Of a stretch of 50,132 nt of DNA, positions 1 through 50,132 are shown one piece after another. Every line of letters starts with the position of its first letter. The first letter of the stretch is position 1. Source of the stretch: Deinococcales bacterium. Lineage in GTDB: Bacteria > Deinococcota > Deinococci > Deinococcales > JAAFIG01. Under the pieces are notes generated by a model. That model ran no database searches. It had not been told where the DNA came from and was given only the letters and a program-made list of their open reading frames with translations. Location: contig JANNVX010000008.1 in assembly GCA_031414595.1 (NCBI GenBank), positions 1 to 50,132 of the forward strand. The letters run 5' to 3'. Position numbers and translations under genes: made by a program.

Positions 1-105
1 GTTTATGCCACTAAACGAAAAGTCGCAGATGACTTCAAGGATTCGATGCGTATTGTGTTTGATAAGGTCATGCCGCAATGGAATTATGTGGCTAAACCGA
101 CTTGA
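1..105 (+). CDS. C-terminal fragment of an ISAzo13-family (Rhodopirellula-type DDE) transposase, truncated by the window edge
   Basis: Frame 1 reads VYATKRKVADDFKDSMRIVFDKVMPQWNYVAKPT*. This resembles the Y-x-T-x-x-K-V...WNY C-terminus typical of ISAzo13 transposases. Confidence 0.75.
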   Translation, partial: VYATKRKVADDFKDSMRIVFDKVMPQWNYVAKPT

Positions 106-142
106 GGTGTAAATCGGGAAGTTATTTACGGACAAATCCTAA
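1..142 (+). mobile_element. Right end of a probable ISAzo13-family insertion sequence
   Basis: The transposase stop is followed by a short tail (..gggaagttatttacggacaaatcctaa). The exact terminal inverted repeat cannot be confirmed because the left end lies outside the window. Confidence 0.55.
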
Positions 143-200
143 CTGTGCCAAACAGCAAAACCCCAATGCCCAAACCGTAGTCGCCCATATCGCGTTCCAA

Positions 201-423
201 CCCTCACCCAACTCGCTTAGGCTCGTTACCCTCTCCCGCCAAGAAGCGCGGGAGAGGGTTGTTCGGTTTGTTTTGTTGGTAAAATTGAAGGCAAAAAATC
301 AAAAAATTAGTTCAAACAGGTTTTTTGAGGCAGACAGGAGTCAAAGTCCCGAATACCAAACCCTCCCCCAGCGAAGCGTTTTTTGGGGGAGGGTGGCGAG
401 CCTAGGCGAGACGGGAGAGGGGG
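201..423. repeat. Inverted pair of CCCTC(T/C)CC-type REP-like palindromic elements (201-259 and 360-423)
   Basis: Copy 1 stem is accctctcccgc(228-239)/gcgggagagggt(248-259). Copy 2 stem is accctccccca(360-370)/tgggggagggt(384-394). Both share ctcgc(t/c)taggctcg in opposite orientations. Confidence 0.75.
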
Positions 424-513
424 TGACTGACCGTGATTTTTTTCGTACTGAAAAGGTTTTGTCCTTAAACTGATGCGAATGGGCAAGCCCAATTTACACC
501 CTTAAAGGTTAAG

Positions 514-1344
514 TCACATTTTAAGGCAAAATTGCATAGCCCCAATCTGAGTTTGGAAATCTAAGCTCATGCGTTTAGCGTGTCTTTCAGGAAACCCTTC
601 ACCAATAAGCGCAGCAAAGACCAAATTAGCGTTTTCATCAGTAGCCTCTATACCCTCTTGAGCAGCTTCAAACACAAATTCTAACCAACGCTTTTCGTCT
701 AACGAGTGCAAATTGCCACTACTTTTGTTCATGCTGTGATACTTGAACTTCCTATACGTTGACTCACTTACACGATCATGTAAATGCACTCGAGTTGGCT
801 GCTGTTCAATTCGCACACTCTTTGGCAAATAATCACGTACTGTATTAACAAAATCAGTCTCGAGAAGATTTTCTTCAGTAGGTGTCATTGAAGGACTACC
901 AATAACTGGGACAATTCTTACAGCCTCTGCAACATCTTCATAAAATGAAATAGCCAAAAGCGGTTTTTCTAAAGATTGATGTTCAAAATAGATACCATTG
1001 AAGGGGATAGGCTCTTTAGTCCCGTATCGCTTCCAATGACCGAGATTTGAAGGTAAAGCATCAAAAACCACTCGAGCTTGTCCAATTGCCACAATAAATT
1101 TGGTATTCAAATAGCTGGGAACATAGCCCTCAGGTAGAACTTGACCTAAATCAAAATATTCATCTGAATTGCTTGCTGACAACCTAACCATAGCTGCTTG
1201 CATGGTGGTGTAGTTCCGATACCCCAAACTTTCAGCTAGAAGTTCAATAGCTGCATTGTGATTCATTTTTTGACCACGTTTCTCGAAGGCATTGCGTAAC
1301 AGCTTTGCTTGTTTCTTGAATTGCAATAGTTTTTCCTCAGTCAT
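514..1344 (-). CDS. Hypothetical protein with an N-terminal 'glyoxalase superfamily protein' (PF20066-like) helical module and an unrelated C-terminal domain
   Basis: The N-terminus KKQAKLLRNAF...MNHNAAIELLAESLGYRNYTTM matches the KxQAKxLR...HxxALExxAxxxGyxxWntl pattern. There is an AAGGAG SD 7 nt upstream. Confidence 0.7.
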   Translation of the reverse strand: MTEEKLLQFKKQAKLLRNAFEKRGQKMNHNAAIELLAESLGYRNYTTMQAAMVRLSASNSDEYFDLGQVLPEGYVPSYLNTKFIVAIGQARVVFDALPSNLGHWKRYGTKEPIPFNGIYFEHQSLEKPLLAISFYEDVAEAVRIVPVIGSPSMTPTEENLLETDFVNTVRDYLPKSVRIEQQPTRVHLHDRVSESTYRKFKYHSMNKSSGNLHSLDEKRWLEFVFEAAQEGIEATDENANLVFAALIGEGFPERHAKRMSLDFQTQIGAMQFCLKM

Positions 1345-1490
1345 AAAAGACTCCTTTCAAATTAGCATTGTGATTTTGAGGTTCCGCGTTGCTCGTTCAA
1401 TGCCATAATGAAAAAAGGCTTTAACCGATAAATTGTGAAATCGCTATTTGCCATACCCATATGGGCGCGGAAGACAGGTGGCGATCACCT
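1345..1490 (-). ncRNA. Putative structured cis-regulatory 5' leader RNA (RBS-sequestering hairpin plus pseudoknot)
   Basis: Pairings read by eye on the minus strand: AGGUG/CACCU (1490-1476); AAAGCCUUUUUUCA(1422-1409)/UGAAAGGAGUCUUU(1359-1346); GGCAUUG(1404-1398)/CAAUGCU(1370-1364); loop CGCGGAA(1388-1382) complementary to UUCCGCG(1472-1466). Confidence 0.55.
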
Positions 1491-1497
1491 AAGCGGT

Positions 1498-1526
1498 ACG
1501 TTAGCACAGCAACGTCAATTTTCCAA
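1498..1526 (-). promoter_or_regulatory. Sigma-70-type promoter for the 514-1344 gene
   Basis: The minus strand reads TTGGAA-N17-TAACGT with an extended TG. The predicted TSS (~1490) coincides with the first hairpin of the leader. Confidence 0.5.
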
Positions 1527-1632
1527 ATGAGTTGCTGTTTGAACCATCTTTTCTGCTCGAGTACACAGCCTTTACTCAAGGCTTTATGACAAGGCTTCCA
1601 AATATGCTGCATAAACGCTTAAAATACAGAAC

Positions 1633-2595
1633 ATGGATCGCCCCTTAATGGTCTTCTCCGGTCAATCGAACCCCGTGCTTGCCAATGAAATCTGCGAGCA
1701 TATCGGCATTCCATTGGGGCGTTCCATGACAAGACGCTTCAGCAACGAAAATATCGAGGTGCAATTTAAGGAATCCTTACGTGAAGCCGATGTTTTTATT
1801 GTCCAGTCCTTGTGTGGCAATGGCGAATACAATGTTTCGGATTCGATTATCGAACTGCTGTTAATGGTTTCTGCTGCCAAAAGCGCCAGTGCCAACCGCG
1901 TCACCGCCGTGATTCCTTATTTTTCCTATGCCCGTTCCGACAAAAAAGACCACCCTCGTATCCCCATCGCGGCTCGAGTCATGGCGGACATGTTTCAGGT
2001 GGCGGGAGCAGACCGCGCCCTGATGATGACCCTGCACAGCCCGCAAGTCCACGGTTTTTTTAGTATTCCCGTAGACCACTTAAGTGCCGAAGTGGTGATT
2101 GGCAACCATTTTATGACCACCATTGCTTCTTTAGAAGATGCCGTGGTGCTTGCCCCAGACGCAGGTGATATTAAACGCGCCTCGAGTTTAGCCCAGCGCC
2201 TTGGTTGTGGTATTGCTTTTATAGATAAACACCGTGTTTCGGATACCAGAGTCGAAGCCCGGGGTTTAATCGGCGAAGTCAAAAATAAAATTGTGCTGAT
2301 TGTGGATGATGAAATTTCCACGGCGGGCAGCATTGTCGAAGCCGTTACTGTGATTAAAGAAGCCGGCGCTCGAGAAGTCCATGTGGCAGCCTCGCACGGT
2401 GTTTATGTTGGACCGGCGGTAGAACGCATCCGTGACCTTGATATTGTCGAATGTGTATCAACCAACACCTGTTATGTCTCGCCAGAAAAACTTGCCATGA
2501 CCCCTAAATTAAAGGTTCTATCGGTTGGCTCGGTCTTTGCCGAAGCAATCCAACGGATTCACACGGGCGAGAGCGTCAGTACGATGTTTATTTAG
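1633..2595 (+). CDS. prs: Ribose-phosphate pyrophosphokinase
   Basis: Motifs [27 protein letters not shown] and the PRPP loop [11 protein letters not shown]. Confidence 0.97.
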
Positions 2596-2634
2596 CTTTT
2601 AGCGACTAGCTGCTAGTTATTAGCTGGTCGCTAG
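2593..2634. repeat. 7-nt periodic TAGCNNN array forming a hairpin after prs (terminator-like)
   Basis: tagcttt tagcgac tagctgc tagttat tagctgg tcgctag; stem tagcgactagct/agctggtcgcta. Confidence 0.55.
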
Positions 2635-2692
2635 AGTCTCCAAAAGGTCTAAAATTTCTAAAAATTTTCGTCAAATGCGTGAATGGAAAAAC

Positions 2693-2771
2693 AAGGCGAA
2701 CACGGGGGTTCGCCCCTACCCCACGCATTTTTTGTACCATAATTGTAGGGACAGACCCCTGTGTCTGTCCT
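2693..2771. repeat. Inverted pair of GTAG-family REP elements
   Basis: aaggcgaacacgggggttcgcccctac (2693-2719) and gtagggacagacccctgtgtctgtcct (2745-2771). The second copy is identical to 16410-16436. Confidence 0.85.
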
Positions 2772-2806
2772 GTAACTAACAATAAAATGGCTTTCTTTCG
2801 GAAGCT

Positions 2807-3454
2807 CTAGCTGGTCGCTGTGTTTGTGTCTTCAAGTAAGTTCAGTAAATCATCCCAAGTGGTCTCGAGGGTCTTGGCTAAAGAAGTGAGGGCAGCTTGC
2901 AGTTGCCAGTTTTTTCTGTCTCCCACCAGATTACTAATACTGCGAAGCTCCAAACACGGCACACCAAAACGCAGGGCGGCTTGGGCAACCCCAGCCCCTT
3001 CCATCGCTTCGGCTCGAGCCGAAAATTGCCTAACAATCCCTTTGGCTCGAGTTGCACTGGTGGTGACGGTTTCTAAGGTGGCAATCACTCCAAATTCCAG
3101 CTTAGCAATTTCAGCATAGGCTAAGGCTCTATTCCAAACAGGTAAAACCTGAAAAATATCTGGGGCAATTGGAAAACCGAGTGCCTCGACTCGAGAACCT
3201 TGCTGTACCCCAAGCCCAGCGTAAACCAAGGCACTCGAGACCACACAATCGGTTAATGCCAAACCAGAATTTGGGTATGCGCCAGCAATACCAACCGATA
3301 AAACCAAATCGGCTCGTCGCTCGAGCAGTGCCGCTTGGGTACTCAGGGCTGCATTGACTGCCCCGATTCCAGAAACAACAATTCTCGAGTCACGCAACAC
3401 GGGTAAGCGCTGCGCCTCGAGCGGCGTGGCAACAACAATCAAAACATTTGGCAT
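2807..3454 (-). CDS. mqnB: Futalosine hydrolase (menaquinone futalosine pathway)
   Basis: PNP/MTAN fold motifs: LIVVATPLEA, SGIGAVNAA, GIAGAY, EAMEGAGVA, ELRSISNLVGDR. Start set at the ATG 6 nt after TAACCT. Confidence 0.85.
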   Translation of the reverse strand: MPNVLIVVATPLEAQRLPVLRDSRIVVSGIGAVNAALSTQAALLERRADLVLSVGIAGAYPNSGLALTDCVVSSALVYAGLGVQQGSRVEALGFPIAPDIFQVLPVWNRALAYAEIAKLEFGVIATLETVTTSATRAKGIVRQFSARAEAMEGAGVAQAALRFGVPCLELRSISNLVGDRKNWQLQAALTSLAKTLETTWDDLLNLLEDTNTATS

Positions 3455-3501
3455 ACACACAGGTTATCTGATTTTGGGCATAATCTTTTACCTTTCGCCT
3501 T

Positions 3502-6500
3502 TTACTTTTCACCCTGTCTTTGAATCACTCGAGCCTGCATGGTCAAACCAAGTTCTAATGCCAAGGCATGAGCTTGACGCAATAATTTCTTTGGATGACG
3601 CTCAAAAACGGCTTTGGCTCGTAAATGGAGGATTTGGACTCGAGGGTTATCGGGGTGCAACCTTAAAAACTGCTCGAGTTCGCTCTGGGCAAGTGGCAGC
3701 TGACCACCATCCAGCAATGCCCGCAGTTCGTCTTCGCGAGGCACAATTAACCCCTATCGGTTGTGGTGGATTGGCTCTGGCTTTGACGGCTCGCATGGCA
3801 CTATGAAAAGCGGGTTGTCCTAACTGGGTTTGGGCGCTGCAACGCAGGTTGTCCAAGCTACTTTGCATCAGGCTTGTGGTTGGAATACTCGAGACAAGCG
3901 CCAAGGCTTGCTCGGCAGCTTCAAGGCTTTTCAGGCAGTCTTTAGGGCGCATGGCAGCCAAATGTATTCGTGCCACTGTGCTGTACGAACTGCACAAGGC
4001 AAAATGATTGACAAGGCTTTGGTAACACTTGACACTTTTTTGGGCTTGCTCGAGTGCCAAACTTAAATCATCGCGCTCGAGCAGCAATTGGGCATGGACA
4101 CGGGTAGCAAAGCCAAGTGCGTTATCCCATTGGCTGTTCTCGAGCAGTTGCAACGCCAAGCCAATGTGCTTTTCGCAGGTGCTTAAGTCGCCCAAAAGCA
4201 AAGCACAGTAGGCTGCCATGGTCAGGGCATACGGGCGACCGTGGCGCATTTGTTTTGAATCAATGGCAGCATCGGCAGCTTCAAGCGCATGACCAAAGGC
4301 ATCTGCCCAACGGCTTAAATTCTGCTCGAACATATAGACCGCTTCTAAAGCACGAAATTTTAAGCTGAGGTCATGGCGACCTAGGCTCAGACTTTGCTTG
4401 GCGTACTCGAGGGCAAGCTGGGTTTGTCCAGCGCTATTTTCTGCCCATGAGCGCAAATCAAAAATCAGGTACTTGACATGATCATCCTGCCCAGCCAATT
4501 CAGATGCTTGGTCAAAAATGGTTCTGGCTTTGGGGATGTCTTGCTGGGTCTGGGCAATCCAATCGGCTTGGGTGGCTAGGGCAATGGCTTCGAGTTGCCG
4601 TATACCGCGTGTCCGTGCAATAGCCAGCAGTTGCTGCAAAGCCCGAGGCAAATTAGGCGCGTTATAGACATCGGCGCGGTAAATCGGGGTCAGTTTTAAG
4701 TAAAGCTGTTCAAGGTCGGCTAAACTCAGCCAAGTCGGTTGCTGCTCGAGTAAATCCAAGCAGCGCTCCAAATGCACAATCCCAGCCTGCATAAAACCCA
4801 ATTGGTAGACTTCTAAAGCTGCTAGTAAACGGTAATGGGCTTCGCGGCGCGGATTATTGGCTCGCTGTGCTAATTCTGCCAGCACACTACTCGGAAAGAC
4901 TTCGCCTATGTGGAGACGTTGCTCGAGATTTTCAAGCATGGTGCTGGACAAAGCAGACTGAACGCTGTTTGGGGTCTGGTCAAGGGTGGCATCACGCAAC
5001 AAGTCGTGAGCGAAATTGTTACCGCGCAGCACATCCAAATGTTCTAATCGCGCCCATGCCAACGCCAATTGCAACTGGTCGCTTTGTAGTACCTGAGTTG
5101 CCAATTGCAAGGTCGCTAAACTGCCTGCCACTGCAATAAATTGGGTCAGTTGCCACTCGAGCGGAGCAAGGGTTTTGAGGCGTGCTTGCAAAAGTGGCAG
5201 TAAGCCCCGTCCAAAATCACCTGTGGCACGGTATGCAAGAGCAGCCTCCTTAAAAAATAAGGCATTGCCACCAGTTAAATTCATAAATTCATCAGCTAAA
5301 CTCTGGCTAATTCCCAAGCGCTCGAGCCAAACCGCAATTTCAGAAATACTCAGTGGTTGGATAGTTTTTTGGCTTGCCCCTTGACGCTCGAGTTGTAACA
5401 GGGCAGCTTGGCTTTGGCTGTGGATTTCATTTGGACGGTACGCCAAAATGCTTGGCGCGAGTTGTTCATCAAGTCGTTGCTGCACCAATTGCCAGAACCA
5501 AGCGCTACTCATTTCATCCATAAAGTGAAGATCGTCGGCAACCAGCCCACTCGAGGCAGGAAAAAACAAATTTAGCGCCGTATACAAACGCATTTGGTCA
5601 AACGTATCGGCAGTGCTGTCTTGACCCAGTTCAGGTAAAAACCGTGCCAAAACCGCTTGCGCCCAAGTTGGTAACACGAAATTTTCACGCAGACGCTTTC
5701 GCACTGTCCGCAACACACTCGAGTATGGCAGGGCGGCATCGTTTGGGCGGCACTCGAGCCAAATTGCCTTGGGAAATTCAGCCCGCAATAAGACGGTTTT
5801 GCCCACTCCTGCTTCGCCAAGCAGCAAACCAAAACCATTCTTTAAGCGCAGGTTCTCGAGCCAAGTACGCTCCAAGAACCGACCAATTGGCGCATCCTCG
5901 AGCCGTTGCAAAGCAATCAAGGGTTCGTTCAGCACCCCAAGCGTCTTGGCACTGGGTGGCAAGCCCAATTCGCGTTGCAAGGTACTTTGACACAACAACA
6001 AGGTTGCTCGGGCTTCGGCTTCACGCCCTGCGCTTCGTTGCAAGCGCATCAATTGCTGGTAAGCGGCTTCGTTCAGGGCATCCAAACGCAAACGCTGCTG
6101 CGCCAATAACAAGGCTGGCTCGAGTTTGGCTTGCCGCAACAAACGCTCGGCGGTTTGTTCTAGTTGTTGTTGCAGTAAACCCGTAAAATACGCGCCTTGT
6201 TCGGCTGCCCAAGTGTCAAATTCAGGAGCGCCCTCCAACACAAAGCCCTCGAGCCATGCACCACGCATCTCGAGCAGGGTCTGTTCGGTCACTTGTTTGG
6301 TCAGCGCCAAGGCATCCACATAAAGTTCTTGCTGCCAAGCCACGGTCTGCCGAGTTGCCTCGAGTGGTCTTAAACCAGCCTTACTCAGCACTTTATTGAC
6401 TTGGGCGAGGGCGTTACGCAAAGCATCCTTGGGTTGCGGTGAATCCACCCACAGCCAATTGGCAAGTTTTTCACGGCTCTGGACACCACCAAGTGCCAAT

Positions 6501-6610
6501 AGAATCAGCAAAGCCAAGCCTTTACGGCTGGGAAAACGTAGTACCTGCTCGGCTAAAGTCAAACTCGGCACAGCAAAAACCCGTAACTCGAGTTGAACAT
6601 CAGCACTCAC
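3502..6610 (-). pseudogene. SARP/BTAD-family transcriptional regulator with AAA ATPase and TPR region, frameshifted near the C-terminus
   Basis: Has a wHTH (SRKGLALL..SREKLANWLW), BTAD (LRLDALNEAAYQQLMRL), Walker A GEAGVGKT and Walker B DDLHFMD. The helical TPR-like C-terminus continues in the 3502-3744 frame after the G4 run at 3751-3754. Confidence 0.75.
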
Positions 6611-6722
6611 GATTTGATTATACGACCTTTAGGATTTTCTAATTGGTCATTTGCTTCTATTGTGACCGAAAACACACCACCGAATCGTTCTCAATAACCC
6701 ACAAATGGCTTAGACTGGTTTT

Positions 6723-7439
6723 ATGATTCGTCGTCCCAATTTGAATAGTCAACAAACCCCGCCAATTACCTTGGTTTTACTGGTCGTGATGGCAGTGTTG
6801 TACTTATTATCGGCTTCGGTTTTCGATCAAAATGGCGGTACGACTTGGCAGCGCTTTTTTGATGGCTCGAGTGTCCCAGTGCTGGCGGAACTCGGGGCGA
6901 ACGCCAAGGTTTTAACCCTTGACCAAAACGAATTTTGGCGTTTATTGACTGCCACTTTACTGCATGGCAGTGTGGTGCATTTAGCGATGAATGGTTTTTC
7001 GCTTTGGAATTTAGGTACGCAACTCGAGTTGGGTATTGGTTGGCAAGAATTACTGTTTGCATTTGTGATTACGGGTTTATCGGGTTCGGGCATGGGGGCT
7101 TTTTTTGGTAATCCCTTGGCAATTAGTATCGGGGCGAGTGGTGCAATTTTTGGCTTGTTGGGTTTCTTGATTTCGGTGGGTACTCGGGATTTGCGTGGTT
7201 TGCAACGCCAAATTTCTAAGAATGGTAGCATGGTTGCAATAGCCCTTTTTTTGCCAATGCTGATTCCAAATGTAGACCATTGGGCGCATATTGGTGGTGT
7301 AGCCAGTGGTTTGGTACTTGGCTTTTTGTACCGCCACCCGCCACAATCCATTCGCCAATTATTGGGTTTCTCGAGTGCTGCCCTGCTTTTGGCTGGGACT
7401 GGAATGATTATTTTCCAAGCCCTCAAAATTGGTTTTTAG
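6723..7439 (+). CDS. Rhomboid-family intramembrane serine protease
   Basis: WRLLTATLLHGSVVHLAMN, catalytic GASG, HWAHIGG. Confidence 0.93.
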   Translation: MIRRPNLNSQQTPPITLVLLVVMAVLYLLSASVFDQNGGTTWQRFFDGSSVPVLAELGANAKVLTLDQNEFWRLLTATLLHGSVVHLAMNGFSLWNLGTQLELGIGWQELLFAFVITGLSGSGMGAFFGNPLAISIGASGAIFGLLGFLISVGTRDLRGLQRQISKNGSMVAIALFLPMLIPNVDHWAHIGGVASGLVLGFLYRHPPQSIRQLLGFSSAALLLAGTGMIIFQALKIGF

Positions 7440-7480
7440 GATCATGAAACATTGCTCTTTCTTTGTTTCTCCTTTTCCTT

Positions 7481-8674
7481 ATGCCTAGCTTCTACGGTTG
7501 GCGTATCGTTTGGGCTTTGGCGATTAGTACCACCGTGGCGTATGGCGTGTTGTATTACAGTTTTGCGGTCTTTGTACAACCAATGGAAACCGAACAAAAT
7601 TGGAATCGGGCGCAGACTTCGGCGGCTTTTAGTCTGGCAATGCTAATAGCGGGTTTGGTTGCACCACTTCTTGGGCGGGTGCTGGATAAACATGGCGCTC
7701 GAGTGGTGATGAGTCTTGGGGCGCTTGGCTCGAGTTTAATGCTTGTCTTGTGGTCGTTCACCTCGAGTTTGCCAGTGTTGTATGCCACTTGGTTTGGTTT
7801 GGGGTTGTGTGCCGCCGCAACCTTTTATGACCCAGCTTTTACCACCATTGCGGTTTGGTTTAAGCTGCATCGGGCAAGGGCAATGCTGAGCATTACACTG
7901 GTGGCGGGGCTTGCCAGTACGATTTTTGTGCCGCTTGATACGTGGTTACTGGGGGTGCTGGGCTGGCGTGGGGCAGTGCGGGTTTTGGCAATACTGATGT
8001 TTTTAACTGCGCCGCTTTTGTGGTGGGTGGTGCGTCGTCATCCGTCAGACCTTGGTTTAAGCGTCGACGGTTTACCCCAAACTCCAGACTTAGATAAACC
8101 CGTGTCGGTGGCAACCACAAATTTTCTGGGGTCTCGAGTCTTTTGGAGTGTGGCATTGGCTTTTGCTTTAGGACGCACGGCGGTTTCGGTGCTTGCGCCA
8201 CATCTCGTGCCGTTGCTGCGTGAACGTGGGTACTCGGGGGCATTTGCGGCATTGGTGGCGGGAAGTATTGGGGTCTTGCAGTTGGTTGGGCGGGTGTTTT
8301 TTACTTCTCTGACTTCTAAAGCGGCGCTGATTAGCTTGTCCAGTGCGGCTTTTGCACTGCATGGGCTTGGGATTTTATTTTTAACCAGTGCTTTAGATAT
8401 CGGTATTTGGGGTTTTGTTATTTTTTATGGCACAACCAACGGTGCAATTACTTTAACTCGAGCCGCGCTTCTTGGTGAATTATTTGCCCCAACTATTTAT
8501 GGCAGGGTCAATGGCATGGTCAGTTTAATGACTGCCCTTTCTGGGGCGTTTATGCCTTTTGTGGCGGGTTTGCTGCACAGCCAAAACGGGGATTATCAAT
8601 TGGTCTTGTGGTTGCTGGTGGCGGCGATGGCTGCCTCGAGCCTACTGGTTTTAGGCGCTCGAGGGCGTTCATAA
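7481..8674 (+). CDS. MFS transporter
   Basis: About 12 hydrophobic helices and MFS motif A (GRVLDKHGAR). Start set at the ATG of MPSFYGW. Confidence 0.9.
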   Translation: MPSFYGWRIVWALAISTTVAYGVLYYSFAVFVQPMETEQNWNRAQTSAAFSLAMLIAGLVAPLLGRVLDKHGARVVMSLGALGSSLMLVLWSFTSSLPVLYATWFGLGLCAAATFYDPAFTTIAVWFKLHRARAMLSITLVAGLASTIFVPLDTWLLGVLGWRGAVRVLAILMFLTAPLLWWVVRRHPSDLGLSVDGLPQTPDLDKPVSVATTNFLGSRVFWSVALAFALGRTAVSVLAPHLVPLLRERGYSGAFAALVAGSIGVLQLVGRVFFTSLTSKAALISLSSAAFALHGLGILFLTSALDIGIWGFVIFYGTTNGAITLTRAALLGELFAPTIYGRVNGMVSLMTALSGAFMPFVAGLLHSQNGDYQLVLWLLVAAMAASSLLVLGARGRS

Positions 8675-8692
8675 AAACTTGACACAATCTTA

Positions 8693-9697: not shown

Positions 9698-9741
9698 CCA
9701 AGTTGTTACCGCTTTTTGATTTTATTACTTATAGGAGAACC

Positions 9742-10293
9742 ATGAAAAAAACCTATCCTTATTCGCGCCGCAGTTTTCTCGGTCATGCCATCAGCACCAC
9801 CGCCGCTTTTTTTGTCGCGCCGCTTGTTAAAGCCAAAAGTCTTGTCTGGGACAGCAAAATGGAAGCCGTTGTGACTGTGGAAATCAATCAGCCAAATGGT
9901 GGGCGTTATAACCGTCCGTACATCGCGGTTTGGCTCGAGAATGCGGCTGGTAAATCGGTGCGTACTTTGGCGGTTTGGGTGCAAGCTGGCAAAGGCGAGC
10001 GTTGGCATCAGGATTTAAGACGCTGGTTTCAGAGCAACGCTGATTTAATCAGCACCACCTCGAGTCCGACCCGAATGCCCGGCACATACAAACTGGTCTG
10101 GGATGGAAAATCCGATAAAGGCATACTGCTCGAGCAGGGCGATTATTTTGTCTGTATCGAAGCGGCAAGAGAACACGGCACATACCAGTTAATCCGAGAA
10201 AAAATAAGTTTTACCAGTGCTGGATTTAGCAAAGTGCTGACGGGTAACGAAGAAATCAAAGGAGCAAAAGTTGAATTCCGTGCAAAGAGCTGA
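9742..10293 (+). CDS. DUF2271-domain exported protein with a Tat signal (probable flavinylation substrate)
   Basis: SD AGGAG; twin-arginine SRRSFLG; RPYIAVWLE, DLRRW, WDGKSDKG and EAAREHG are typical of DUF2271. Confidence 0.85.
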   Translation: MKKTYPYSRRSFLGHAISTTAAFFVAPLVKAKSLVWDSKMEAVVTVEINQPNGGRYNRPYIAVWLENAAGKSVRTLAVWVQAGKGERWHQDLRRWFQSNADLISTTSSPTRMPGTYKLVWDGKSDKGILLEQGDYFVCIEAAREHGTYQLIREKISFTSAGFSKVLTGNEEIKGAKVEFRAKS

Positions 10294-11385: not shown

Positions 11386-11447
11386 AATTTTATCATAACG
11401 TATTCTGATGAAGTTAAACACCGAAATTGATTAAGAAACACCGCCTA

Positions 11448-11506
11448 TCTTGACCATAGACACGCACCTGTCTTGAACCCATACGCGCACCTGACGGGCG
11501 GGTTCG
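11448..11506. repeat. Nested GCACCTG hairpin micro-elements
   Basis: tcttgaccatagacacgcacctg followed by tcttgaacccatacgcgcacctgacgggcgggttcg; related to 33761-33836. Confidence 0.6.
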
Positions 11507-38543: not shown

Positions 38544-38550
38544 AAAAACC

Positions 38551-42500: not shown

Positions 42501-43101
42501 CAGATAAGACTTTTGCAGTGGAAGTAACCACCAAGTTAATTTCACTATTGGTATTATCATCTCGACGTAAAACTGTCAATTCAACACTGGAATTACCATA
42601 AGTCCAATTCTGAACACCAGCTGCGGAAGGGTCTGAATCCAATGGAATTTGTACACCAGTATACAAGCTAGGCGCTACAGGACGACGACTCGCGACAGAA
42701 TCTGTGGCGTTTGGCAAAGTTGGGCTGGTTGCACCTGTATAAAAACAACCTTCATTGTTATTCTTATCTGCCTTCATTAGATCACGATAGGCTTGACTGG
42801 TATTTGATGAAGAACCACTCCAAATACCAGTCAGCCATTTTTTATAAGCACAATTATCAAAAGCAATGGCAGACCCACCCTCACCAGACAAGACCCAACG
42901 GCGGTATGGCTCATAAAAGAGATAGCTCATTGCTTCTTCGATGCCTGCTTCAGCCGCGGCCTGTGTTTGAACCGACAAAACTGTATCAGAACTGGAATTT
43001 CGATTTGTCAACGCCAACAAACTCGAAACTACAACTAAACTAGCAATAATCGTTAGAACTGCTAACACTAAAATGAGAGCAATACCCTGAGTCTTTTTCA
43101 T
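39517..43101 (-). CDS. Large PilX/ComZ-like pilus-tip competence protein
   Basis: G|IALILVLAVL lacks Glu5 (PilX/GspK type); QAAAEAGIE; FAMLTNDINCSFCH; beta-solenoid-like stretch (ITGTIHVNGDLVIRG..GNVYIVGDL). Confidence 0.78.
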   Translation of the reverse strand: MKKTQGIALILVLAVLTIIASLVVVSSLLALTNRNSSSDTVLSVQTQAAAEAGIEEAMSYLFYEPYRRWVLSGEGGSAIAFDNCAYKKWLTGIWSGSSSNTSQAYRDLMKADKNNNEGCFYTGATSPTLPNATDSVASRRPVAPSLYTGVQIPLDSDPSAAGVQNWTYGNSSVELTVLRRDDNTNSEINLVVTSTAKVLSGSSELSLRRIQRTLRVGGAPFPGDEFAMLTNDINCSFCHLQVDNMKRVYTPSTDTTSRFRRVKLGTLNAINFNGLGHNNDTLIAGTVYSRGTAAPSTGTDVYLAPWASASEPGLTKAGTNASIGTNTPSHKYNSTTPSGSGYSPTTNLAESAALDAAGTASATPFGKLYYNYPRPSTITGSTWNGNWPDGEVPEKFPSIVKENPTTTDGLLDDAEWSAYIGGAPSGTLATFGNAVVYGVGRAGSTAFGPASFDPVSANTAFAGTRVGDLFGAVRFRPVVNVQNTPMTLAALIADITDLNAVIRATQGAANAIFNPASAPVFVAPTLAANFNAAYTGTIQQLINGFAIQWRGWLVQQALASPNNRDFRPTNNTADNVLNAGPNFAPIQPPSAINNNGLARNNFWVAYSPQANTMSVAFCTQDPCVILRNTDGSAVTTANAVSQPAGTVGIRNINLITSATSLQNIAMFQVPVTQTTIFPQTSNSAAADLASGTNSGKSGYFNGNLIVDAGRMQDSTTYISITGTIHVNGDLVIRGKVLGQGRLLVRGNVYIVGDLVYQCPDSNGACLTNDGATNPSYRNSEGLPKLAVLAGGSVIVGDYDHPDFRANRSQLNLINDQIGQNRQPSAPSNNGAIAFNQSWLYQTIPGQTGTNRVNSGAGMGFAPMIAAFGNQSSRPASRPVFQSAPFGLLVSRSGFGQYEGTQIDSTTRAITTLSPSNGVLRTGDSTTGGLVGSAVSNVLLGCTAAASVSNNAPIIPTNINADTTNRAPLHMGYWCPPSVGKFFRTWSSGTSANGPASDTSAWTLQPTGNQGLDGGAGMTTGWLAGVLRSNGGVGFDTLGDLSQTKLLKLMWLNTMETTADRDPNTAGQQSVGPLRTDGLLYSANSLFAVARFYMDQRTSAAGGPLSNTQARWLHHGSLLSFELGFLLTGNAEKGAAQFTVNRATPIDFTPATATTDWQAGPAMGVFWDERLSGLLGLGGKQMSISRGGVFTQVAR

Positions 43102-43203
43102 ACATCACCTCGAGAACACATCAAATAATTTAACATGACGCTAGTATCAAGCTAATCGCACCACCCTGCAACCCCAAGCTAGGGGAAGTTGTAAAATACC
43201 CGC

Positions 43204-43458
43204 ATGACCCGCATTGAACTTTGCCTTGATTTTATTACCCCAGACACTCGAGAAGCCCTGCTCGAGGTGCTGTACGAAGAACTGCGTATTTCGCCTGGAG
43301 AAATCACGGCTGATGGAAATTTTGAATTAGACCTCATAAACCACGACCCTGAAACAACAAACCCCGATGACGCGCCCTATGTGCGAATCAACGGTTTGTT
43401 GTTTCTAAAAGTTTCACAGCAACGAATGCGGGAACTGATTAACGGACGTAAGCGTTAA
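43204..43458 (+). CDS. NuoE C-terminal-like thioredoxin-fold protein lacking most Fe-S cysteines
   Basis: IELC...[16 protein letters not shown]...APYVRING matches the NuoE/2Fe-2S thioredoxin-like pattern, but only one Cys is present. Confidence 0.6.
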
Positions 43459-45434
43459 GTCTCGAGTAATTGCTTGAAAATAGCTTGCACAACTTGTGGC
43501 TGCCCCCCGCCTGGGCTTTTCATGGCTTCGCCCACAAAGAAACCAAGTAAACCATGTCGTCCGTTCTTATAGGCGCTAACTTTATCTGGATTTGCCTCGA
43601 GAATGGCTTGTAGACTTGGCTCGAGTGAAGCGCGTAATTCTGCGCCAACCTCGAGTTCTGGCATGACTTCAGTTTCTGCTTTAGCTTCTTTGGGTTTTTT
43701 ACTTTCGCCTTTTGCCTTTTGCCCTTCGCTTTTTGTAGCTTCGCTCCAATTATCCTTTAGCCCAATAATTCGGTTGAACACCAGCGCCTCAGGTCTCGAG
43801 TCTACTGGGTCTTGCCAAAAATAGCCGTTGCGTTCAAACTGGTAACGAGCATCGGCGGGTTGCTCGAGAACAATCGCTTCGATTTTACCGTGTAGAAGCT
43901 CAAAGCTGTGCGGGTTGAGGTATGCCAGGAAATCGGTTTCGTCCTCGAGTTTTGCTTCTTGTTCAGGGTTTGGAACGGTGAAAAGACGGTCATACAACCT
44001 CGCTTCAAATGACACAGCCGTTTCGACACTGACCCAGTGAATCACACCAGATGCTTTGCCTTCGGGTAATACTGTACAGTGAATCTCGAGAATATCGCCA
44101 CCCGAAGATTTAACTACATTGGTACATTGTATAATTCCAGCCCCACGCAAACGCACTGTACCACCAAGGGTTAAGCGCTTAAAACCAGTCGTTGGGGTCT
44201 CGAGGAAATCTTCGGTTTCTATAAAAATCTCGCGGGACAAGCTGACGGCTCGAGTCGCATGTTCTGGGGCAACACGCCGACCATTAGGAAGCGGTACAAG
44301 ACCGTCTAAGCTGGCGTTAATCACATCTGGTGGGAAATACGGTAACTCAAGGGTTTGTATGATTTCTAGGTTCTCGAGAACTACTTTTAATGGACGCAAG
44401 ACCGCCATAACCCTTGGGCTGCGGGTGTTCAGGTCATCTCGCACCGCGTACTCGAGCGCACCAATATCCACGGTTCGGTTGGTACGCGACACACCTATGC
44501 CACTGGCAAAAGCACGAATCGCATCTGGGGTGATGCCACGCCGACGCTGGGCGGCGATGGTTGGCATTCTTGGGTCATCCCAACCAGCCACACTACCCGA
44601 TTCGATTAGTTTTCGGAGTTTGCGTTTTGAAACCACAGTGTACTCGAGCGAACGACGACCAAATTCATACTGATACGGACGGGACTTTAGGGCTGGATGC
44701 TGCACATTCTCGAGAATCCAGTCGTAAATGGCTCGGCTATCCACAAATTCTAAGCTGCATAAACTGTGAGTCACACCGTTAATTGCATCGTTCAAGGCTT
44801 GAGCGTAATCGTAGAGTGGGTAAATACACCAGTTTTTACCTTGGCGGTAATGTTCGGTGTGCATGATTCGGTAAAGCGGTGGGTCGCGGAGTTTCATGTT
44901 GGGATTTGCCAAATCTATTTTAGCTCGCAGAACGTGTTTACCGTTTAGGAATTCACCACGGCGCATTCTCGAGAATAAATCAAGGTTTTCTGCAATGCTG
45001 CGCCCACGAAATGGGCTTGGTGTGCCAGCTTTATCTACTGTGCCACGTAGTTTTGCCATTTCATCCGATGAAACACTTTCAACATAGGCTAAGCCTTTTT
45101 CGATCAGTTGCACAGCACATTCAAACATCACTTCAAAATCATCCGAGGCAAATTTAACTTCGGTTTTCCAGCCCATCCACTCGAGGTCTTGGGTAATGGC
45201 TTTTACATACTCGAGTTTTTCGGTTTCGGGATTGGTGTCGTCCATGCGAAGCACCCATATCCCGTTGTAATCGGCAGCCAGACTGTAATTAAGGTTACAA
45301 GCAAAGGTATGCCCAAGATGGGCGTAGCCGTTGGGTTCGGGCGGAAAGCGCGTGACAACTTTTTTCACACGCCCAGACTCGAGGTCGGCTTCTATGGTTT
45401 CAGTAATAAAATTCGGAGCAACAAGACGAGACAT
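43455..45434 (-). CDS. glnS: Glutamine--tRNA ligase with a short C-terminal YqeY/GatB-like tail
   Basis: [40 protein letters not shown]-terminal [18 protein letters not shown]. Confidence 0.95.
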
Positions 45435-45474
45435 ACCCCTGAGTCTACCGTACAAAAAGCAGTAGAATCTTTTT

Positions 45475-46620
45475 ATGTCCCTTAATTTTTCGCTTAGTTC
45501 TGAACAGATGCAACTCCAAGCCCTCGCACGGGAATTTACAGCTAAGGAAATCATTCCAATCGCTGCCGAGTATGACCGCACCGAAACCTATCCCGAGCAG
45601 ATTCTCGAGAAGGCATTTGAAGTCGGACTTAGTAACATTATTGTTCCAGAACATGCGGGTGGACTTGGGCTTGGGATGCTCGAGGAAATTATCATCGGTG
45701 AAGAAATGGGTTATGGCTGCATGGGTATTTACACGATTCTAATGGCTTCTGAACTTGGTATTACCCCAATTCTGGTCGGCGGAACGCCAGAACAACAAAA
45801 GCGGTTTCTCGAGCCTCTAACCCAAAAAGCTGGTTTGGCAAGTTTTGCCCTGTCCGAAGCGAATAACGGCTCAGATGCTGGGGCAATGCGTACCAAAGCG
45901 GTTCTCGAGGGCGACGAGTGGGTTTTGAACGGCACGAAAATGTGGATTAGCAACGGTGGAATTGCCGAGTTTGCGGTGGTGTTTGCCTCGGTGGATTACG
46001 CCTTAAAAGCCAAAGGAACAGTGGCGATTGTTGTACCAAAAGGTACGGCTGGTTTTAGCCACAATAAAATTCACCATAAAATGGGGCAACGTGCCACCTA
46101 CACTGCCGAACTTGTATTTGATAACGTGCGTGTACCAAAAGATAATATACTAGGTGGCATTGGCGACGGCTTTAAGATCGCCATGAAAACCCTTGATAAA
46201 ACCCGTATTCCTGTGGCGGCTGGCAGTGTTGGCATTGCGCGGCGGGCGCTCGAGGAGAGTGTCAAGTACGCTAAAACTCGGGAGGCTTTTGGTAAACCGA
46301 TTGGCGATTTTCAGATGATTCAAGCCAAACTTGCCAATATGTATATGGGACTCGAGACAGCGCGGCTGATTACTCAAAAAGCCGCGTGGTTGGTGGACGC
46401 TGGGCAGCCGCACAGCATGGAAGCTGCGCTGGCAAAAGCCTACGCTTCGGATATTGCTTTTGATGCTGCCAACGAAGCGATTCAGGTGCATGGTGGTTTT
46501 GGGTATGTCGGTGAATACCCTGTAGAGAAATTACTGCGTGATGTGAAACTCAATCAGATTTACGAAGGCACAAATGAAATCCAACGGGTGATTATGGCTC
46601 GGGGGTTACTGCGCGATTAA
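45475..46620 (+). CDS. Acyl-CoA dehydrogenase
   Basis: [42 protein letters not shown]. Confidence 0.96.
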
Positions 46621-46639
46621 GATGTTGTAAGATGAACAA

Positions 46640-46816
46640 GTGGGTAAAGCCAAGGCACGTAAAAAAATTGCTGGATTAGAAAAGCAGGTGAAAGCGCATG
46701 AACTCAAACTTAAAAATGAGCCTCAAGCCCGCAGTGCCAAACACTGGGAGGCAGAAATTGCCAACTGGCAAAAAATTATCAAGCGCAGGCTCGAGCGTCT
46801 TAAAAAAACCAAATGA
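46640..46816 (+). CDS. Small basic protein (58 aa), absent from the ORF track; putative toxin
   Basis: GTG start 6 nt after TAAGAT. Translation: MGKAKARKKIAGLEKQVKAHELKLKNEPQARSAKHWEAEIANWQKIIKRRLERLKKTK*. Confidence 0.7.
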   Translation: MGKAKARKKIAGLEKQVKAHELKLKNEPQARSAKHWEAEIANWQKIIKRRLERLKKTK

Positions 46817-46817
46817 G

Positions 46818-47021
46818 TTGATTCTCAGCGCTCCTCATGAAATTTGGGATGAGCTTTTTGAAGAAGTTGAGAACCTCAAAACACTGTTGCAAAATCGCCG
46901 TTTGGCAATCAAAAAAAGTGTACAAGATGATTTAGATGTACTTTTGTTTTCGTCTTTGGTTCATCTTCATGTTCATAGTGGCGCAATGATAGATGTTGAT
47001 GACGAGATACAAGAAGAATGA
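46818..47021 (+). CDS. Small acidic protein (~67 aa); putative antitoxin partner
   Basis: In-frame TTG 1 nt after the upstream stop: MILSAPHEIWDELFEEVENLK...SSLVHLHVHSG...DDEIQEE. The stop overlaps the next gene's ATG. Confidence 0.55.
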   Translation: MILSAPHEIWDELFEEVENLKTLLQNRRLAIKKSVQDDLDVLLFSSLVHLHVHSGAMIDVDDEIQEE

Positions 47022-48094
47022 TTGAATCTCTTTATCTAAGCATTCAGGTTTCATTGGCATTGTTCAGTATAGTTAATTCACGATTTTGGCTCGAGTTAAA
47101 ACAAAAACCAGTCTCGAGTGGGAAAATTTCTATTCTTATTCCAGCCCGTAACGAAGCGCGAAATCTCGAGAAGTTACTGCCTAGTTTACTCGCTCAGGAC
47201 GCGGCTAATCTCGAGATTATTGTCTTAAATGACCGTTCTGAGGATGACACCAGCGCAGTTCTTGAGCAATTCCCACAAGTACAGGTTCTCGAGGGTTCGC
47301 CACTACCCGCAGATTGGCTTGGCAAGAACTGGGCATGTCATCAATTAAACATGGCTGCCACAGGTAAGATTCTAATTTTTACCGATGCTGACACGACTTG
47401 GCAACCTTTTACGGCAAATGCAATTGCTATTCATCTCGAGACGCAAAAAGCCGATGCGCTTTGTGCTTGGGCTGCCCAAGAAGTGACCGACCCGATTTCA
47501 AAACTGATTCAGCCTTTGCAGCAATGGAGTTTACTGGCGTTCTTACCGCTATTTTTTGTACCCTTACGAATGTTTAGTGTGGCAGTTGCTGCCAATGGGC
47601 AGTGCCTTGCTTTTACTCGAGATTCGTATACCCGTATTGGTGGGCATCAAGCCGTTAAAAAAAGTGTGATTGAAGATATGGCATTGGCTCGAGCCGTCAA
47701 GCACAAACACGGCAAGTTCTTACTTTTTAATGGTGCAAAGGCAATTTCTACCAAGATGTACGCCTCGAGCGAGGAGGCTTTTGAGGGGTACGCCAAGAAT
47801 GTCTATCCAGCCTTTGGTGCAACAAAAATCGCATTTTTTGCGGCTACAGCTTTTAATTTGGGTTTGTACTTGCTACCGTGGTTATTGCTGCCTTTTTGGG
47901 ATTGGGCATGGTTGGCTATTTTGTGTTCAATGCTGCCTCGAGTAATTTCAGACATTCGCAATCGGTATGACCCACTTTACACAATTCTGCATCCGATTGG
48001 CATTGTTATTTGGGCTTTGATTGGCTTTGAAAGTTTACGCCGCTACCATGCTGGACGAATCACTTGGAAAGGGCGCGAGTACGACTTGCGTTAG
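47018..48094 (+). CDS. Family 2 glycosyltransferase, possibly a carotenoid glycosyltransferase (CruC/CrtQ-like)
   Basis: ISILIPARNEA, LNDRSED, WLGKNWACHQL, FTDAD, ANGQ, IEDMALAR; C-terminal TMs; ITWKGR. Confidence 0.85.
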   Translation: MIESLYLSIQVSLALFSIVNSRFWLELKQKPVSSGKISILIPARNEARNLEKLLPSLLAQDAANLEIIVLNDRSEDDTSAVLEQFPQVQVLEGSPLPADWLGKNWACHQLNMAATGKILIFTDADTTWQPFTANAIAIHLETQKADALCAWAAQEVTDPISKLIQPLQQWSLLAFLPLFFVPLRMFSVAVAANGQCLAFTRDSYTRIGGHQAVKKSVIEDMALARAVKHKHGKFLLFNGAKAISTKMYASSEEAFEGYAKNVYPAFGATKIAFFAATAFNLGLYLLPWLLLPFWDWAWLAILCSMLPRVISDIRNRYDPLYTILHPIGIVIWALIGFESLRRYHAGRITWKGREYDLR

Positions 48095-48138
48095 TGGTTA
48101 TGAAACAGAAATTATTCAAGAAATACGTCTGGCAAACC

Positions 48139-48173
48139 AAAGTTAGAAGCTAAAAACCAGCAGCTAGAAGCTA
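48139..48173. repeat. TAGC-family heptamer array
   Basis: aaagtta gaagcta aaaacca gcagcta gaagcta, same family as 13693-13727. Confidence 0.5.
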
Positions 48174-48176
48174 TTT

Positions 48177-49526
48177 TTAGAGCGCTGGCGGTACAGCCGT
48201 AAAAATTGCGACCATCAGTAAAGTCATCACACCTGTTAAAGCTGCAATGGTTAATCTTGGCAACCAAACCACCCGCACCGTCTCGAGTTTTTCCATGCTC
48301 GAAACACTGCTGCCAAGTAACGCACCGACATAAGTAAAGCCGCACCAAGCCAAGCCACCCGCCAACAGATGCCCAAGAATTGTGTCCATGTTGACTCGAG
48401 GGTAAATCAGAATTTGCGACATGCCAAACAGTAGTACAGTCAGTGCTACACCACTGCTGATTAGTCCATATGTCCAAGTCCAAGTAGCATTTTTGCGCCA
48501 GTAAGCAATCAAGTCTAGGGCAATCAAAACGGACAGCGCCAACAGATGTGATCGTAAACTCATACCCAAATCAAAGCCACCAATTAGGCTTAGGGCAATG
48601 GCGCGTTGCAGCAGCAGAAACACACCCACCAAAGTGGCTGCCCCAATACGTTTGGTGGCGTTCTGCACAAATGCGCCCATAAAACCCGCTACGCCAAGCA
48701 AAGCCGCCACATACAACCATTCTGGGCGCTCCCAGAAAACTGTAATTTTAGAAAGCCGATTTTCAAAGCGTTCTTTGGTGATGTTGTCCCATTCGGTTGT
48801 GCCAAATTGCAACATAAACATCAGTGCCGCGCCACATAGCCAAATCGTCAGCCATTCGTTTAAGCTGATGCCACCTATGCCCCGCCAATTGGAATTTTTG
48901 CCGCTCGACAGCGAAAGGGCAATGCCGCAGAGCATTAAGGCAATAAAACCAAGCAGTAAAGTGATGTGCGGTAAGCTCCAAGCCGTGATGTCTACACCAT
49001 AAATTCTGTGCCACAGCAAATCCGAAGGGGCGCTAAAAAGTAGAAATAAACTGACACAAGCAAGGAGTGCCAGTAATGGCTCAGACCTGGCTCGAGAACG
49101 CAGCCCACCTTGTCCGCTCAGCACCAAATACACCATCCCAGCACTGGCAAGCAAACTACAAATGGCAAAACTCGAGTACATTAAAATATGTGGCATCCAC
49201 AAAAAATCGTTGCCCACACCAAAACGCCGATGCCAAGACTCATCCCAAGCCGTAGAAAAGGTCATCAGGGTGGCACTGGTCAGGACGGCAATTGCTCCCA
49301 ATTGACGCAGCACAGGATTGGGTTTGACCACGACTGCATGTTGAATCGGCGAAAAAAGTAACCAATACAAAAATCCAGCAAAACCAACAATCATACCAAT
49401 CAGTATCGCCACACCCAAAACAAAGGTCGGACCCGGAGTGGCTGTTCCACCCCAATAGACCATACCGACCAAAACCAAAATTAAACCCAGTGGAACACCA
49501 ATGCGTTGCGCTCGAGACCAGACCAT
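48177..49526 (-). CDS. Multi-pass membrane protein of unknown function
   Basis: About 12 TM segments with a repeated (W/S)DxxWH...PH motif (WDESWHRRFG..PH; SDLLWHRIYG..PH). Confidence 0.75.
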   Translation of the reverse strand: MVWSRAQRIGVPLGLILVLVGMVYWGGTATPGPTFVLGVAILIGMIVGFAGFLYWLLFSPIQHAVVVKPNPVLRQLGAIAVLTSATLMTFSTAWDESWHRRFGVGNDFLWMPHILMYSSFAICSLLASAGMVYLVLSGQGGLRSRARSEPLLALLACVSLFLLFSAPSDLLWHRIYGVDITAWSLPHITLLLGFIALMLCGIALSLSSGKNSNWRGIGGISLNEWLTIWLCGAALMFMLQFGTTEWDNITKERFENRLSKITVFWERPEWLYVAALLGVAGFMGAFVQNATKRIGAATLVGVFLLLQRAIALSLIGGFDLGMSLRSHLLALSVLIALDLIAYWRKNATWTWTYGLISSGVALTVLLFGMSQILIYPRVNMDTILGHLLAGGLAWCGFTYVGALLGSSVSSMEKLETVRVVWLPRLTIAALTGVMTLLMVAIFTAVPPAL

Positions 49527-49552
49527 AACAACAGTCTAGCTGCGTTTTTGAC

Positions 49553-49897
49553 TTAAAGCAATCTGTCCCCACGTTGGCTCAGGGCAACAATAACCGCCCA
49601 ATCATCGGGTTGGTACGGGTCGTCAAGGGCTGCTTTATTACGCCGCAAAGCACCACAGGTCAAACAACGATGCAGGATTACCCAACCTTTTTTGCTGTGT
49701 TGTTCGACACCAATTGGCTCGAGAACCCCACCACAAAGGCTGGCACGATCACCCGGGAATTCATCTACATGGAGGCTGTACAAACACCTCGGGCAGTGAT
49801 TACGGACACTTCCATTCTCAAGTGGCTGGACAAGGCAAGCACAATTGACACAAGTAAAAGCACTATTTGTACCTTGGACTGTAAAACGCCGTGTCAT
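49553..49897 (-). CDS. RNHCP-domain protein
   Basis: FTCVNC..RNHCPRCLYSLHVD..PGDRA..HRCLTCG. Confidence 0.92.
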   Translation of the reverse strand: MTRRFTVQGTNSAFTCVNCACLVQPLENGSVRNHCPRCLYSLHVDEFPGDRASLCGGVLEPIGVEQHSKKGWVILHRCLTCGALRRNKAALDDPYQPDDWAVIVALSQRGDRLL

Positions 49898-50044
49898 TCA
49901 AGTACCATAAAATAAAAAACGCGCCCTTCTAGGCGCTGATGGAAAAGATAGTAGCATGGTATTCGTTACTTGTCAAATTTATGCACTCGAGGAGATAGGG
50001 CTAAAAGTGTGTTGACCCTCGAGTCCTGCCCAACGGAATCACTA

Positions 50045-50132
50045 ATGCTTCAACCCAATCCTCAGATTTTCGACCAGTCAACCGTTCCCAAGGCGATTTT
50101 CCTCGTACCAAATGATGATTCCAACGCCAAAA
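50045..50132 (+). CDS. Possible 5' end of a CDS running off the window
   Basis: Open frame MLQPNPQIFDQSTVPKAIFLVPNDDSNAK to the edge; no recognisable motif. Confidence 0.3.
   Translation, partial: MLQPNPQIFDQSTVPKAIFLVPNDDSNAK

Follow-up and report, generated by a model that had tools for sequence, protein, structure and literature searches.

CTCGAG as a hyper-abundant word in a family of Deinococcota and a candidate Chi signal of AddAB

The palindrome HIP1 (GCGATCGC) of cyanobacteria has been without a cause for thirty years. The DNA uptake sequences of Neisseria and Haemophilus, which are 9-10 bp long and read as double-stranded DNA, are dense, evenly spaced, thought to have been spread by molecular drive, and bend the proteins in which they lie. 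The Chi signals at which RecBCD and AddAB stop differ from species to species and are read on the 3' strand (PMC4614115); those of E. coli and S. aureus are skewed, with counts explained by codon usage (bioRxiv 2021.07.08.451572), and a Chi-like role has already been suggested for HIP1 (bioRxiv 2024.09.10.611283). CTCGAG has been reported in clusters near dnaA in Nocardia (PMC4752239). Here we describe CTCGAG in a stretch of 50,132 nucleotides from a Deinococcales bacterium (GenBank GCA_031414595.1, contig JANNVX010000008.1, positions 1 to 50,132; the window in what follows) and in 364 genomes of its phylum. The word may be what AddAB reads as Chi, with biased gene conversion as the means of its spread, a reading to which we give a probability of about 0.5. 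A literature search and a look-up of terms in the HIP papers, with subscription journals, REBASE and bioRxiv supplements outside its scope, returned no paper that describes CTCGAG in this phylum either as Chi or as an iterated word.

The window (GC 0.479) holds 256 copies of CTCGAG, or 5.1/kb, where base composition would give about 11 by hand calculation. They extend over 789..50023 (first start 789, last 50018) at a mean spacing of about 193 bp and, being palindromic, are given without strand. The first-pass annotation had counted 23 copies by eye in 3500-6610, against fewer than one expected by chance. Our recount gave exactly 23 (3528..6592; starts at 3528, 3639, 3673, 3888, 4049, 4076, 4139, 4406, 4745, 4922, 5156, 5321, 5387, 5550, 5718, 5753, 5855, 5897, 6119, 6248, 6269, 6359 and 6587), and a hand calculation from base composition gives about 0.7. 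The sparsest stretch, 38827..43114, has four copies (38827, 40380, 41706, 43109) and genes with pilin-like N-termini, as read from their open reading frames. The genome to which the window belongs (G000; 4.49 Mb in 120 contigs, 94% complete) carries 23,235 copies, one per 193 bp or 5,176/Mb, at 2.3-8.6/kb on every one of the contigs. The observed-to-expected ratio of copies is 23.9, 43.6, 18.1 and 3.8 under Markov models of order 0, 1, 2 and 3, respectively; in a control of 80 UvrA loci among the matches listed, its median was 1.4 and its maximum 7.4, the latter with GAGCTC equally high. The repeated unit is the six bases, with no 8-mer extension dominant in G000. CCTCGAGG is the rarest flanked form there, yet the dominant one in genome G042 and genus g9.

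With genes called as the longest non-overlapping open reading frames, the three frames of the window's genes contain 139, 51 and 44 copies, compared with means of 10.4, 3.8 and 2.1 and maxima of only 19, 8 and 10 over 200 synonymous shuffles. The 22 copies outside the gene calls (1556..50023) start at 1556, 3528, 3639, 10059, 10129, 13691, 19425, 19457, 19546, 19606, 23424, 23449, 24554, 24673, 26379, 27064, 32945, 43109, 43247, 43261, 49986 and 50018. Genome-wide, the 2,788 coding sequences of G000 carry 10,097, 3,114 and 3,473 copies in the three frames, where three synonymous shuffles within genes give about 1,070, 312 and 217; this is a 9- to 16-fold excess in each frame, and short intergenic DNA holds 5.26 copies/kb, on par with genes. 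In the proteins, Leu-Glu occurs at 2.23 times its expectation and Glu-Leu at 0.98, and 60% of the Leu-Glu pairs are spelled CTC GAG. One could appeal to codon or amino-acid bias, given that 60% of the coding copies fall in the Leu-Glu frame and that such usage accounts for E. coli Chi (bioRxiv 2021.07.08.451572), or to an artefact of assembly. There is next to no chance of either: the bias is refuted by the excess over shuffles in every frame, by the equal intergenic density and by the disparity of Leu-Glu and Glu-Leu, and the artefact is at odds with 19 genomes that were assembled separately and agree in density. The enrichment was neither lost on shuffling nor confined to a single frame, and therefore the observation stands; the earlier statements that the word occupies all frames as well as intergenic DNA, and that codon or amino-acid bias alone does not suffice, were both upheld. 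The excess is thus confirmed as real, and it is frequent enough to alter proteins. On a separate matter, codon pairs joining TG to GA are scarce in G000 (TTG GAA 360, CTG GAA 197), with Met-Glu at 0.53.

The 19 genomes just mentioned are those of the window's family (f1), and all of them have 4.3-6.8 copies/kb, in agreement with the annotation's proposal of a HIP-like palindrome shared by the lineage. In family f5, genera g13, g26 and g27 have 1.4-3.5 copies/kb, and genus g9 has 0.6-1.6/kb, near its own control. Against codon shuffles of sampled sequence, the ratio is 5.2 in G013, 4.1 in G042, 0.84 in g9 (100 kb), 1.16 in G158 and 0.12 in G043. The word is also dense on plasmid pMESIL01 of A. 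silvanus (63 copies against 15 control copies in 50 kb) and in Meiothermus phage MMP17 (MH939157, L400), with 87 CTCGAG against 8 GAGCTC in 33 kb. The record of this phage lists a Vsr gene adjoining a D12 methyltransferase.

The way in which sites come and go was followed in 342 kb of G000 aligned at 90.9% identity with a relative, G001 (508 kb fetched of a 4.3 Mb genome). The two have 1,712 sites in common, while 215 are found in G000 only and 223 in G001 only. Synonymous transitions away from the site at positions 1 to 3 number 120/2722, 47/1060 and 114/2732 (0.04) against a background of 0.12-0.15, so that CTCGAG is lost 3-4 times more slowly than the background. Gains are biased as well: near-matches align to a site by T>C at position 3 in 76/115 cases (controls 0.08-0.13) and at position 1 in 56/159 (controls 0.06-0.09), with a weaker effect at position 2 (28/146; 0.15 overall, 0.09-0.10 for matched codons). 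Transversions to C at position 3 reach 12/32 against 0.05-0.06, and even T>C gains that change an amino acid stand at 17/120 and 17/111 against a background of 0.015. CTCGAG is also the best conserved of 708 hexamers (0.885, mean 0.644).

The strongest gains are T>C at both C positions, as repair of T:G mismatches would give, and this is what one might expect if a methyltransferase and methyl-directed or very-short-patch repair ratcheted near-matches into the word, the mechanism that Elhai put forward for HIP1. Both MutS and MutL are encoded, a methyltransferase acting on one strand could yield the polarity described below, and CTCGAG is m6A-methylated in M. ruber, M. chliarophilus and Marinithermus by methyltransferases with no nuclease listed (Blow et al., PMC4752239 Table S3). 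We nevertheless find such a ratchet improbable. Losses are fewer along every path, and transversions to C are favored too; the GC step that Elhai's model requires is missing from CTCGAG; a crude pattern, not a hidden Markov model, found no Vsr; and the same Table S3 lists no CTCGAG motif for M. silvanus (PMC4752239), yet the silvanus plasmid is enriched.

The search for enzymes bears on this ratchet, too. The METHYLTRANSFERASE idea of the first-pass annotation, that a CTCGAG/TCGA methyltransferase drives the word, did not gain support, as no family-wide CTCGAG enzyme was found. Among about 20 methyltransferase-like genes of G000, many of them adjoining likely nucleases, none is recognizably specific for CTCGAG. 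Family f1 yielded no XhoI-family nuclease (PF04555), no PaeR7I-like and no TaqI-like methyltransferase (0/19 genomes for each). In the survey as a whole, PaeR7I-like enzymes are patchy (17/364) and TaqI-like ones occur in 35/364, of which 32 belong to the unenriched genus g9 (32/32). The constancy of the latter in g9 and in g29 (2/2; L267-L295) is unusual for such an enzyme. Clustering of the retrieved PF01555, PF00145 and PF07669 matches, which covered the loci returned from 11 genomes (6 for PF07669) and, for PF00145, all but a few of 36 matches, gave no ortholog common to the whole family, and the single-contig genome G013 has just three enzymes of these classes, mutually unrelated. D12-class enzymes are found in 18/19 family genomes. 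The negative for the family is limited to assemblies that are 57-94% complete and to searches that left out PF02384 and MT-A70 types.

Several individual enzymes were considered as candidates and set aside. Beta-type XhoI-linked enzymes gave short matches only in G000; an m5C orphan methyltransferase at G000 C22 is shared within genus g1 only; and an alpha-type enzyme at G000 C72 has a close match only in G011 among five genomes tested. A recurring D12 group, at 55-71% identity in G001, G009, G011 and G013 with four similar-scoring matches left out, is nearest to the GGCC-specific M.CbeI (PDB 7M6B), an enzyme known to methylate GGCC (PMC8616854, PMC3425538); it was not found in G000, G042 or G156, and the G000 matches to it have only 26-29% identity. 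The orphan CTCGAG methyltransferases of the cultured species are probably a consequence of abundant sites and not their cause.

A further feature of the word is its spacing. A Leu-Glu position carries CTCGAG in 22-30% of cases when it lies less than 16 bp from another site, in 57% at 31-60 bp, and in 75-79% at 181-600 bp, and the remaining two frames show the same rise with distance. Between G000 and G001, sites with a conserved neighbor within 60 bp are shared in 393/526 cases and isolated sites in 502/592 (p=3.5e-5). The bias in gain and the bias in retention both fade within about 60-100 bp of another CTCGAG. This rule suggests a process that runs along DNA and halts at the first site it reads. 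It is also here that purifying selection has to be weighed, in which a protein binding double-stranded DNA would use CTCGAG to organize the chromosome. Such selection could explain why the word is evenly spread and ranks first in conservation, and Xu et al. argue for purifying selection on HIP1 (PMC5861425). We consider it very unlikely: single sites turn over, with 438/2,150 not common to the two genomes; 119 related genomes of family f3 manage without a dense word; and the repulsion between sites in one of the relatives, G154, is strand-specific.

This last genome deserves a closer description. G153-G155 have AddAB and avoid CTCGAG. In its place, G154 carries CCAGAG/CTCTGG, with 22,865 copies or 4.5/kb genome-wide, at 5-fold over codon shuffles in all frames and on both strands (L369, L370, L387-L391), together with CCCGAG/CTCGGG at 2.5-4.5-fold. 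In a ranking of 80 genomes for CCAGAG/CTCTGG, its two congeners come second and third, at 1.5-1.6/kb. Polarity and skew are not visible in the palindrome CTCGAG itself; the G154 word is non-palindromic, and its orientation can therefore be examined. Over 140 kb, or 2.7% of the genome, pairs lying 6-60 bp apart in the same orientation number 117 against 180 expected, whereas those in opposite orientation number 187 against 179. When simulations kept the proteins unchanged, the 101 pairs in the same orientation stood against 140+-13 (0/400 simulations as low) and the 161 in opposite orientation against 136+-11. Since only the same-orientation pairs are depleted, the redundancy between neighbors is strand-specific, which points to a directional one-strand reader of CTC(T/G)GG; neither a symmetric methyl mark nor an uptake signal read as dsDNA nor a nucleoid-binding protein would be expected to produce it. 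Judging from its likeness to CTCGAG and its replacement of it, the G154 word probably descends from CTCGAG.

AddAB is a candidate for such a reader. G000 encodes an AddA-like helicase-nuclease that scores below the NCBIfam cut-offs, and AddA matches at E<=1e-30 are found in 239/364 genomes. AddB was matched in 51/62 genomes tested, three of them weakly; it was matched in all 18 other genomes of family f1, twice as fragments. In family f3, strong AddA matches are confined to six genomes (G042, G153-G155, G156 and G157), and the same six have AddB. The densities in this family are telling. Genus g7 has at most 0.36 CTCGAG/kb in 111/111 genomes and no strong AddA match, the exceptions in the family being G042 (3.6/kb) and, within genus g23, G156 and G157 (8.6 and 7.0/kb), all three with both AddA and AddB; their congener G158 in g23 has neither protein and 0.3/kb. 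AddB gave no match in G158, G041, G149-G152, G159, G043, G139 and G362, the last of these having neither AddA nor AddB and 0.29 CTCGAG/kb. In five further AddA-negative genomes, AddB was present in G326, G354 and G356 and not found in G271 and G221. When one genome per genus was taken (two for g23, excluding G327 and G363, the latter 57% complete), CTCGAG was at least four times as frequent as GAGCTC in 21/51 representatives with AddAB and in 0/8 without. Across the survey, the word is never dense where AddA and AddB were both tested absent. Among the AddAB-bearing genera, CTCGAG and GAGCTC densities show no correlation (rho -0.15). The AddA match at C2:293505-296174 of G338, a genome of modest density (0.63/kb), has nine internal stops, and it is possible that addA is being lost there.

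The AddB proteins of the relatives retain the domain that scans for Chi. A profile built from nine of them has its best match in residues 5-374 of B. subtilis AddB, the Chi-scanning domain (E 9.7e-11), and ADDB_N was detected in 7/9. Q42 of the B. subtilis protein is invariant, and W73 and F210 remain aromatic. A PDB search with a single AddB sequence gave no AddB match, and a single-sequence fold reached a pLDDT of 36. From the literature, Deinococcus is without addAB, and the AddAB of T. thermophilus destroys incoming DNA (PMC11143384); the available text of this study invokes Chi and names no sequence (PMC11143384).

We infer, then, that AddAB reads CTCGAG and that gene conversion drives it, in the following manner. 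AddAB would trim DNA from an end, whether broken or newly arrived, until it reads a site, and there Chi would stop the degradation and hand the end to recombination. A copy bearing the site would keep it and recombine there, while a siteless copy would be trimmed past that point and rewritten from its partner, and in this way site-bearing alleles could win gene conversion without any benefit to the gene. Two neighbors on one strand would divide the work between them, hence the fading within about 60-100 bp, and the reading of a palindrome from both directions would account for CTCGAG being more highly enriched than G154's one-way word. In choosing between the two roles offered by the first-pass annotation, DNA uptake or recombination, our analysis favors recombination and leaves uptake as a rival only. 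A broader proposal is held more tentatively, at somewhat less than even odds: CTCGAG would be the ancestral palindromic Chi of Deinococcota AddAB; selfish Chi-biased conversion at two-ended breaks would rewrite proteomes, as in the doubling of Leu-Glu; the word would decay with the loss of addAB and become CTC(T/G)GG when the specificity of AddB changes; and the same drive may underlie HIP1.

A different factor acting on one strand in recombination or transformation, be it in uptake, in the processing of single-stranded DNA or in nicking, could read the word, with biased uptake or integration as the drive and AddAB merely co-lost. It predicts the same gain and loss bias, spacing and polarity. 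HIP1 raises transformation in cyanobacteria (bioRxiv 2024.09.10.611283) and tracks uptake genes (PMC13756078), and the extreme avoidance of other palindromes in G000, detailed below, suggests heavy DNA traffic. We regard this as somewhat unlikely. Deinococcus and Thermus are transformable (PMC11143384), and the genera that appear to correspond to them are without CTCGAG enrichment; the word is carried by phage MMP17; an orientation-blind dsDNA uptake signal is incompatible with the polarity in G154; and no candidate gene was identified, although no uptake receptor was searched for.

It is worth pointing out that a number of observations weigh against the Chi reading. No AddB was detected in the assembly of G000, whose addA comes to within 256 bp of a contig end. 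The AddA search scored only two candidates per genome, and the co-occurrence was counted without a tree, so that kin are not independent. CTCGAG:GAGCTC is below 4 in 30/51 AddAB-bearing genus representatives. Genus g9 (32 genomes, Thermus-like by inference) has AddA in 30/32, with CTCGAG at 0.84 of its shuffle in the 100 kb sampled and no CCAGAG variant. G271, without AddA and AddB, still has 1.66 CTCGAG/kb (ratio 2.2). The base-reading residues D41, T44, F68 and R70 of B. subtilis AddB are not retained, and no AddB residue tracks the motif among the nine relatives. The rates of gain and loss are unpolarized, there being no outgroup, and assume equilibrium because the lineage-only sites are nearly equal in number (215 vs 223). 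The polarity, observed in one genome with two control hexamers, fits any one-strand reader, and the G154 word has no strand skew (358 vs 342 in seven 20-kb pieces, with no trend and with the replichores not mapped). A role for CCCGAG/CTCGGG as half-sites in G000 was rejected: CTC GGG is at 2.1-fold and CCC GAG at 1.35-fold, and neither is repelled by CTCGAG (1.0-1.4).

The word may also have a use in following genes over time. In G000, its density climbs with the GC content of the gene from 0.8 to 6.5/kb, and the majority of the longest gaps lie in low-GC genes, which suggests that CTCGAG builds up in genes after their arrival; its density may serve to date such arrivals. A low-GC (0.39) methyltransferase gene at C4:28798-30789 already has 15 copies in 2 kb, and other low-GC islands have 0 over 2-5 kb.

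Other features of the same DNA can be noted briefly. The window contains a dispersed repeat of about 150 bp with an internal inverted repeat at 16280-16460 and 2691-2772; it has 69 BLAST matches in G000, often lies near contig ends and is multi-copy in relatives too. A second dispersed repeat at 22640-22800, AT-rich and with inverted segments, is matched 11 times in G000 and many times in G003 and G006. Nearly all other palindromes are almost absent from the 4.49 Mb of G000 (GGGCCC 0, TGCGCA 2, GGCGCC 3, CGATCG 3, GAGCTC 6, GGCC 152), and this avoidance is mirrored in the proteins, with Trp-Pro reduced to 0.10 and Gly-Pro to 0.33 of what is expected. One restriction locus varies between the same flanking genes, being an m5C pair in G000 (C90:33093-35067) and an M.CbeI-like pair in G001 (L328:7079-9008); possibly both pairs are for GGCC.

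For words of this kind, CTCGAG would offer a testable cause, with a named word, a named enzyme, contrasts of gene loss within one genus and, in G154, a natural switch of specificity; cultured relatives such as Meiothermus carry it. If the Chi reading is true, a DNA-repair signal can drive itself through a genome and alter its proteins, and placing CTCGAG at the ends of DNA should make these bacteria, whose AddAB destroys what comes in, easier to transform.

Among the known systems, the word behaves most like a HIP. In common with HIP1 and the alternate HIPs, it is a hyper-abundant palindrome in all frames and in intergenic DNA, conserved beyond codon needs and clade-wide, and as a 6-mer it reaches 5,176/Mb where cyanobacterial HIPs have 300-2,700/Mb (PMC4390886, PMC5861425). 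It is without the class's methyltransferase and GC-step features, however: Elhai found a cognate methyltransferase in nearly every HIP genome, whereas for CTCGAG none was found family-wide, and at 67% GC with no GC dinucleotide it differs from the GC step and at least 75% GC of Elhai's ratchet. It also differs from HIP1 in belonging to another phylum, Deinococcota, and in having a relative, G154, that swaps it for a non-palindromic polar word. The orphan methyltransferases M.Mru1279II, M.Mch9957IV and M.Mhy14884I share its sequence and its phylum, but they are patchy, were not found in family f1, and in the reports on them CTCGAG is a target of methylation or forms a local cluster and is not described as a word spread over the genome (PMC4752239). 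With uptake sequences it has in common that it is dense and evenly spaced, with a presumed spread by drive and an imprint on proteins; unlike them it is 6 bp long, is found in phage, and has a polar variant. Finally, CTCGAG resembles the Chi of AddAB and RecBCD (AGCGG in B. subtilis; PDB 3U44/4CEI; PMC4614115, bioRxiv 2021.07.08.451572) in being short, co-occurring with AddAB and varying between lineages, with one-strand behavior in G154 and a Chi-scanning AddB that is kept. Unlike known Chi, it is palindromic, far above codon expectation, unskewed and able to reshape proteins, and the base-reading residues of its AddB differ; by sequence it is a candidate Chi.

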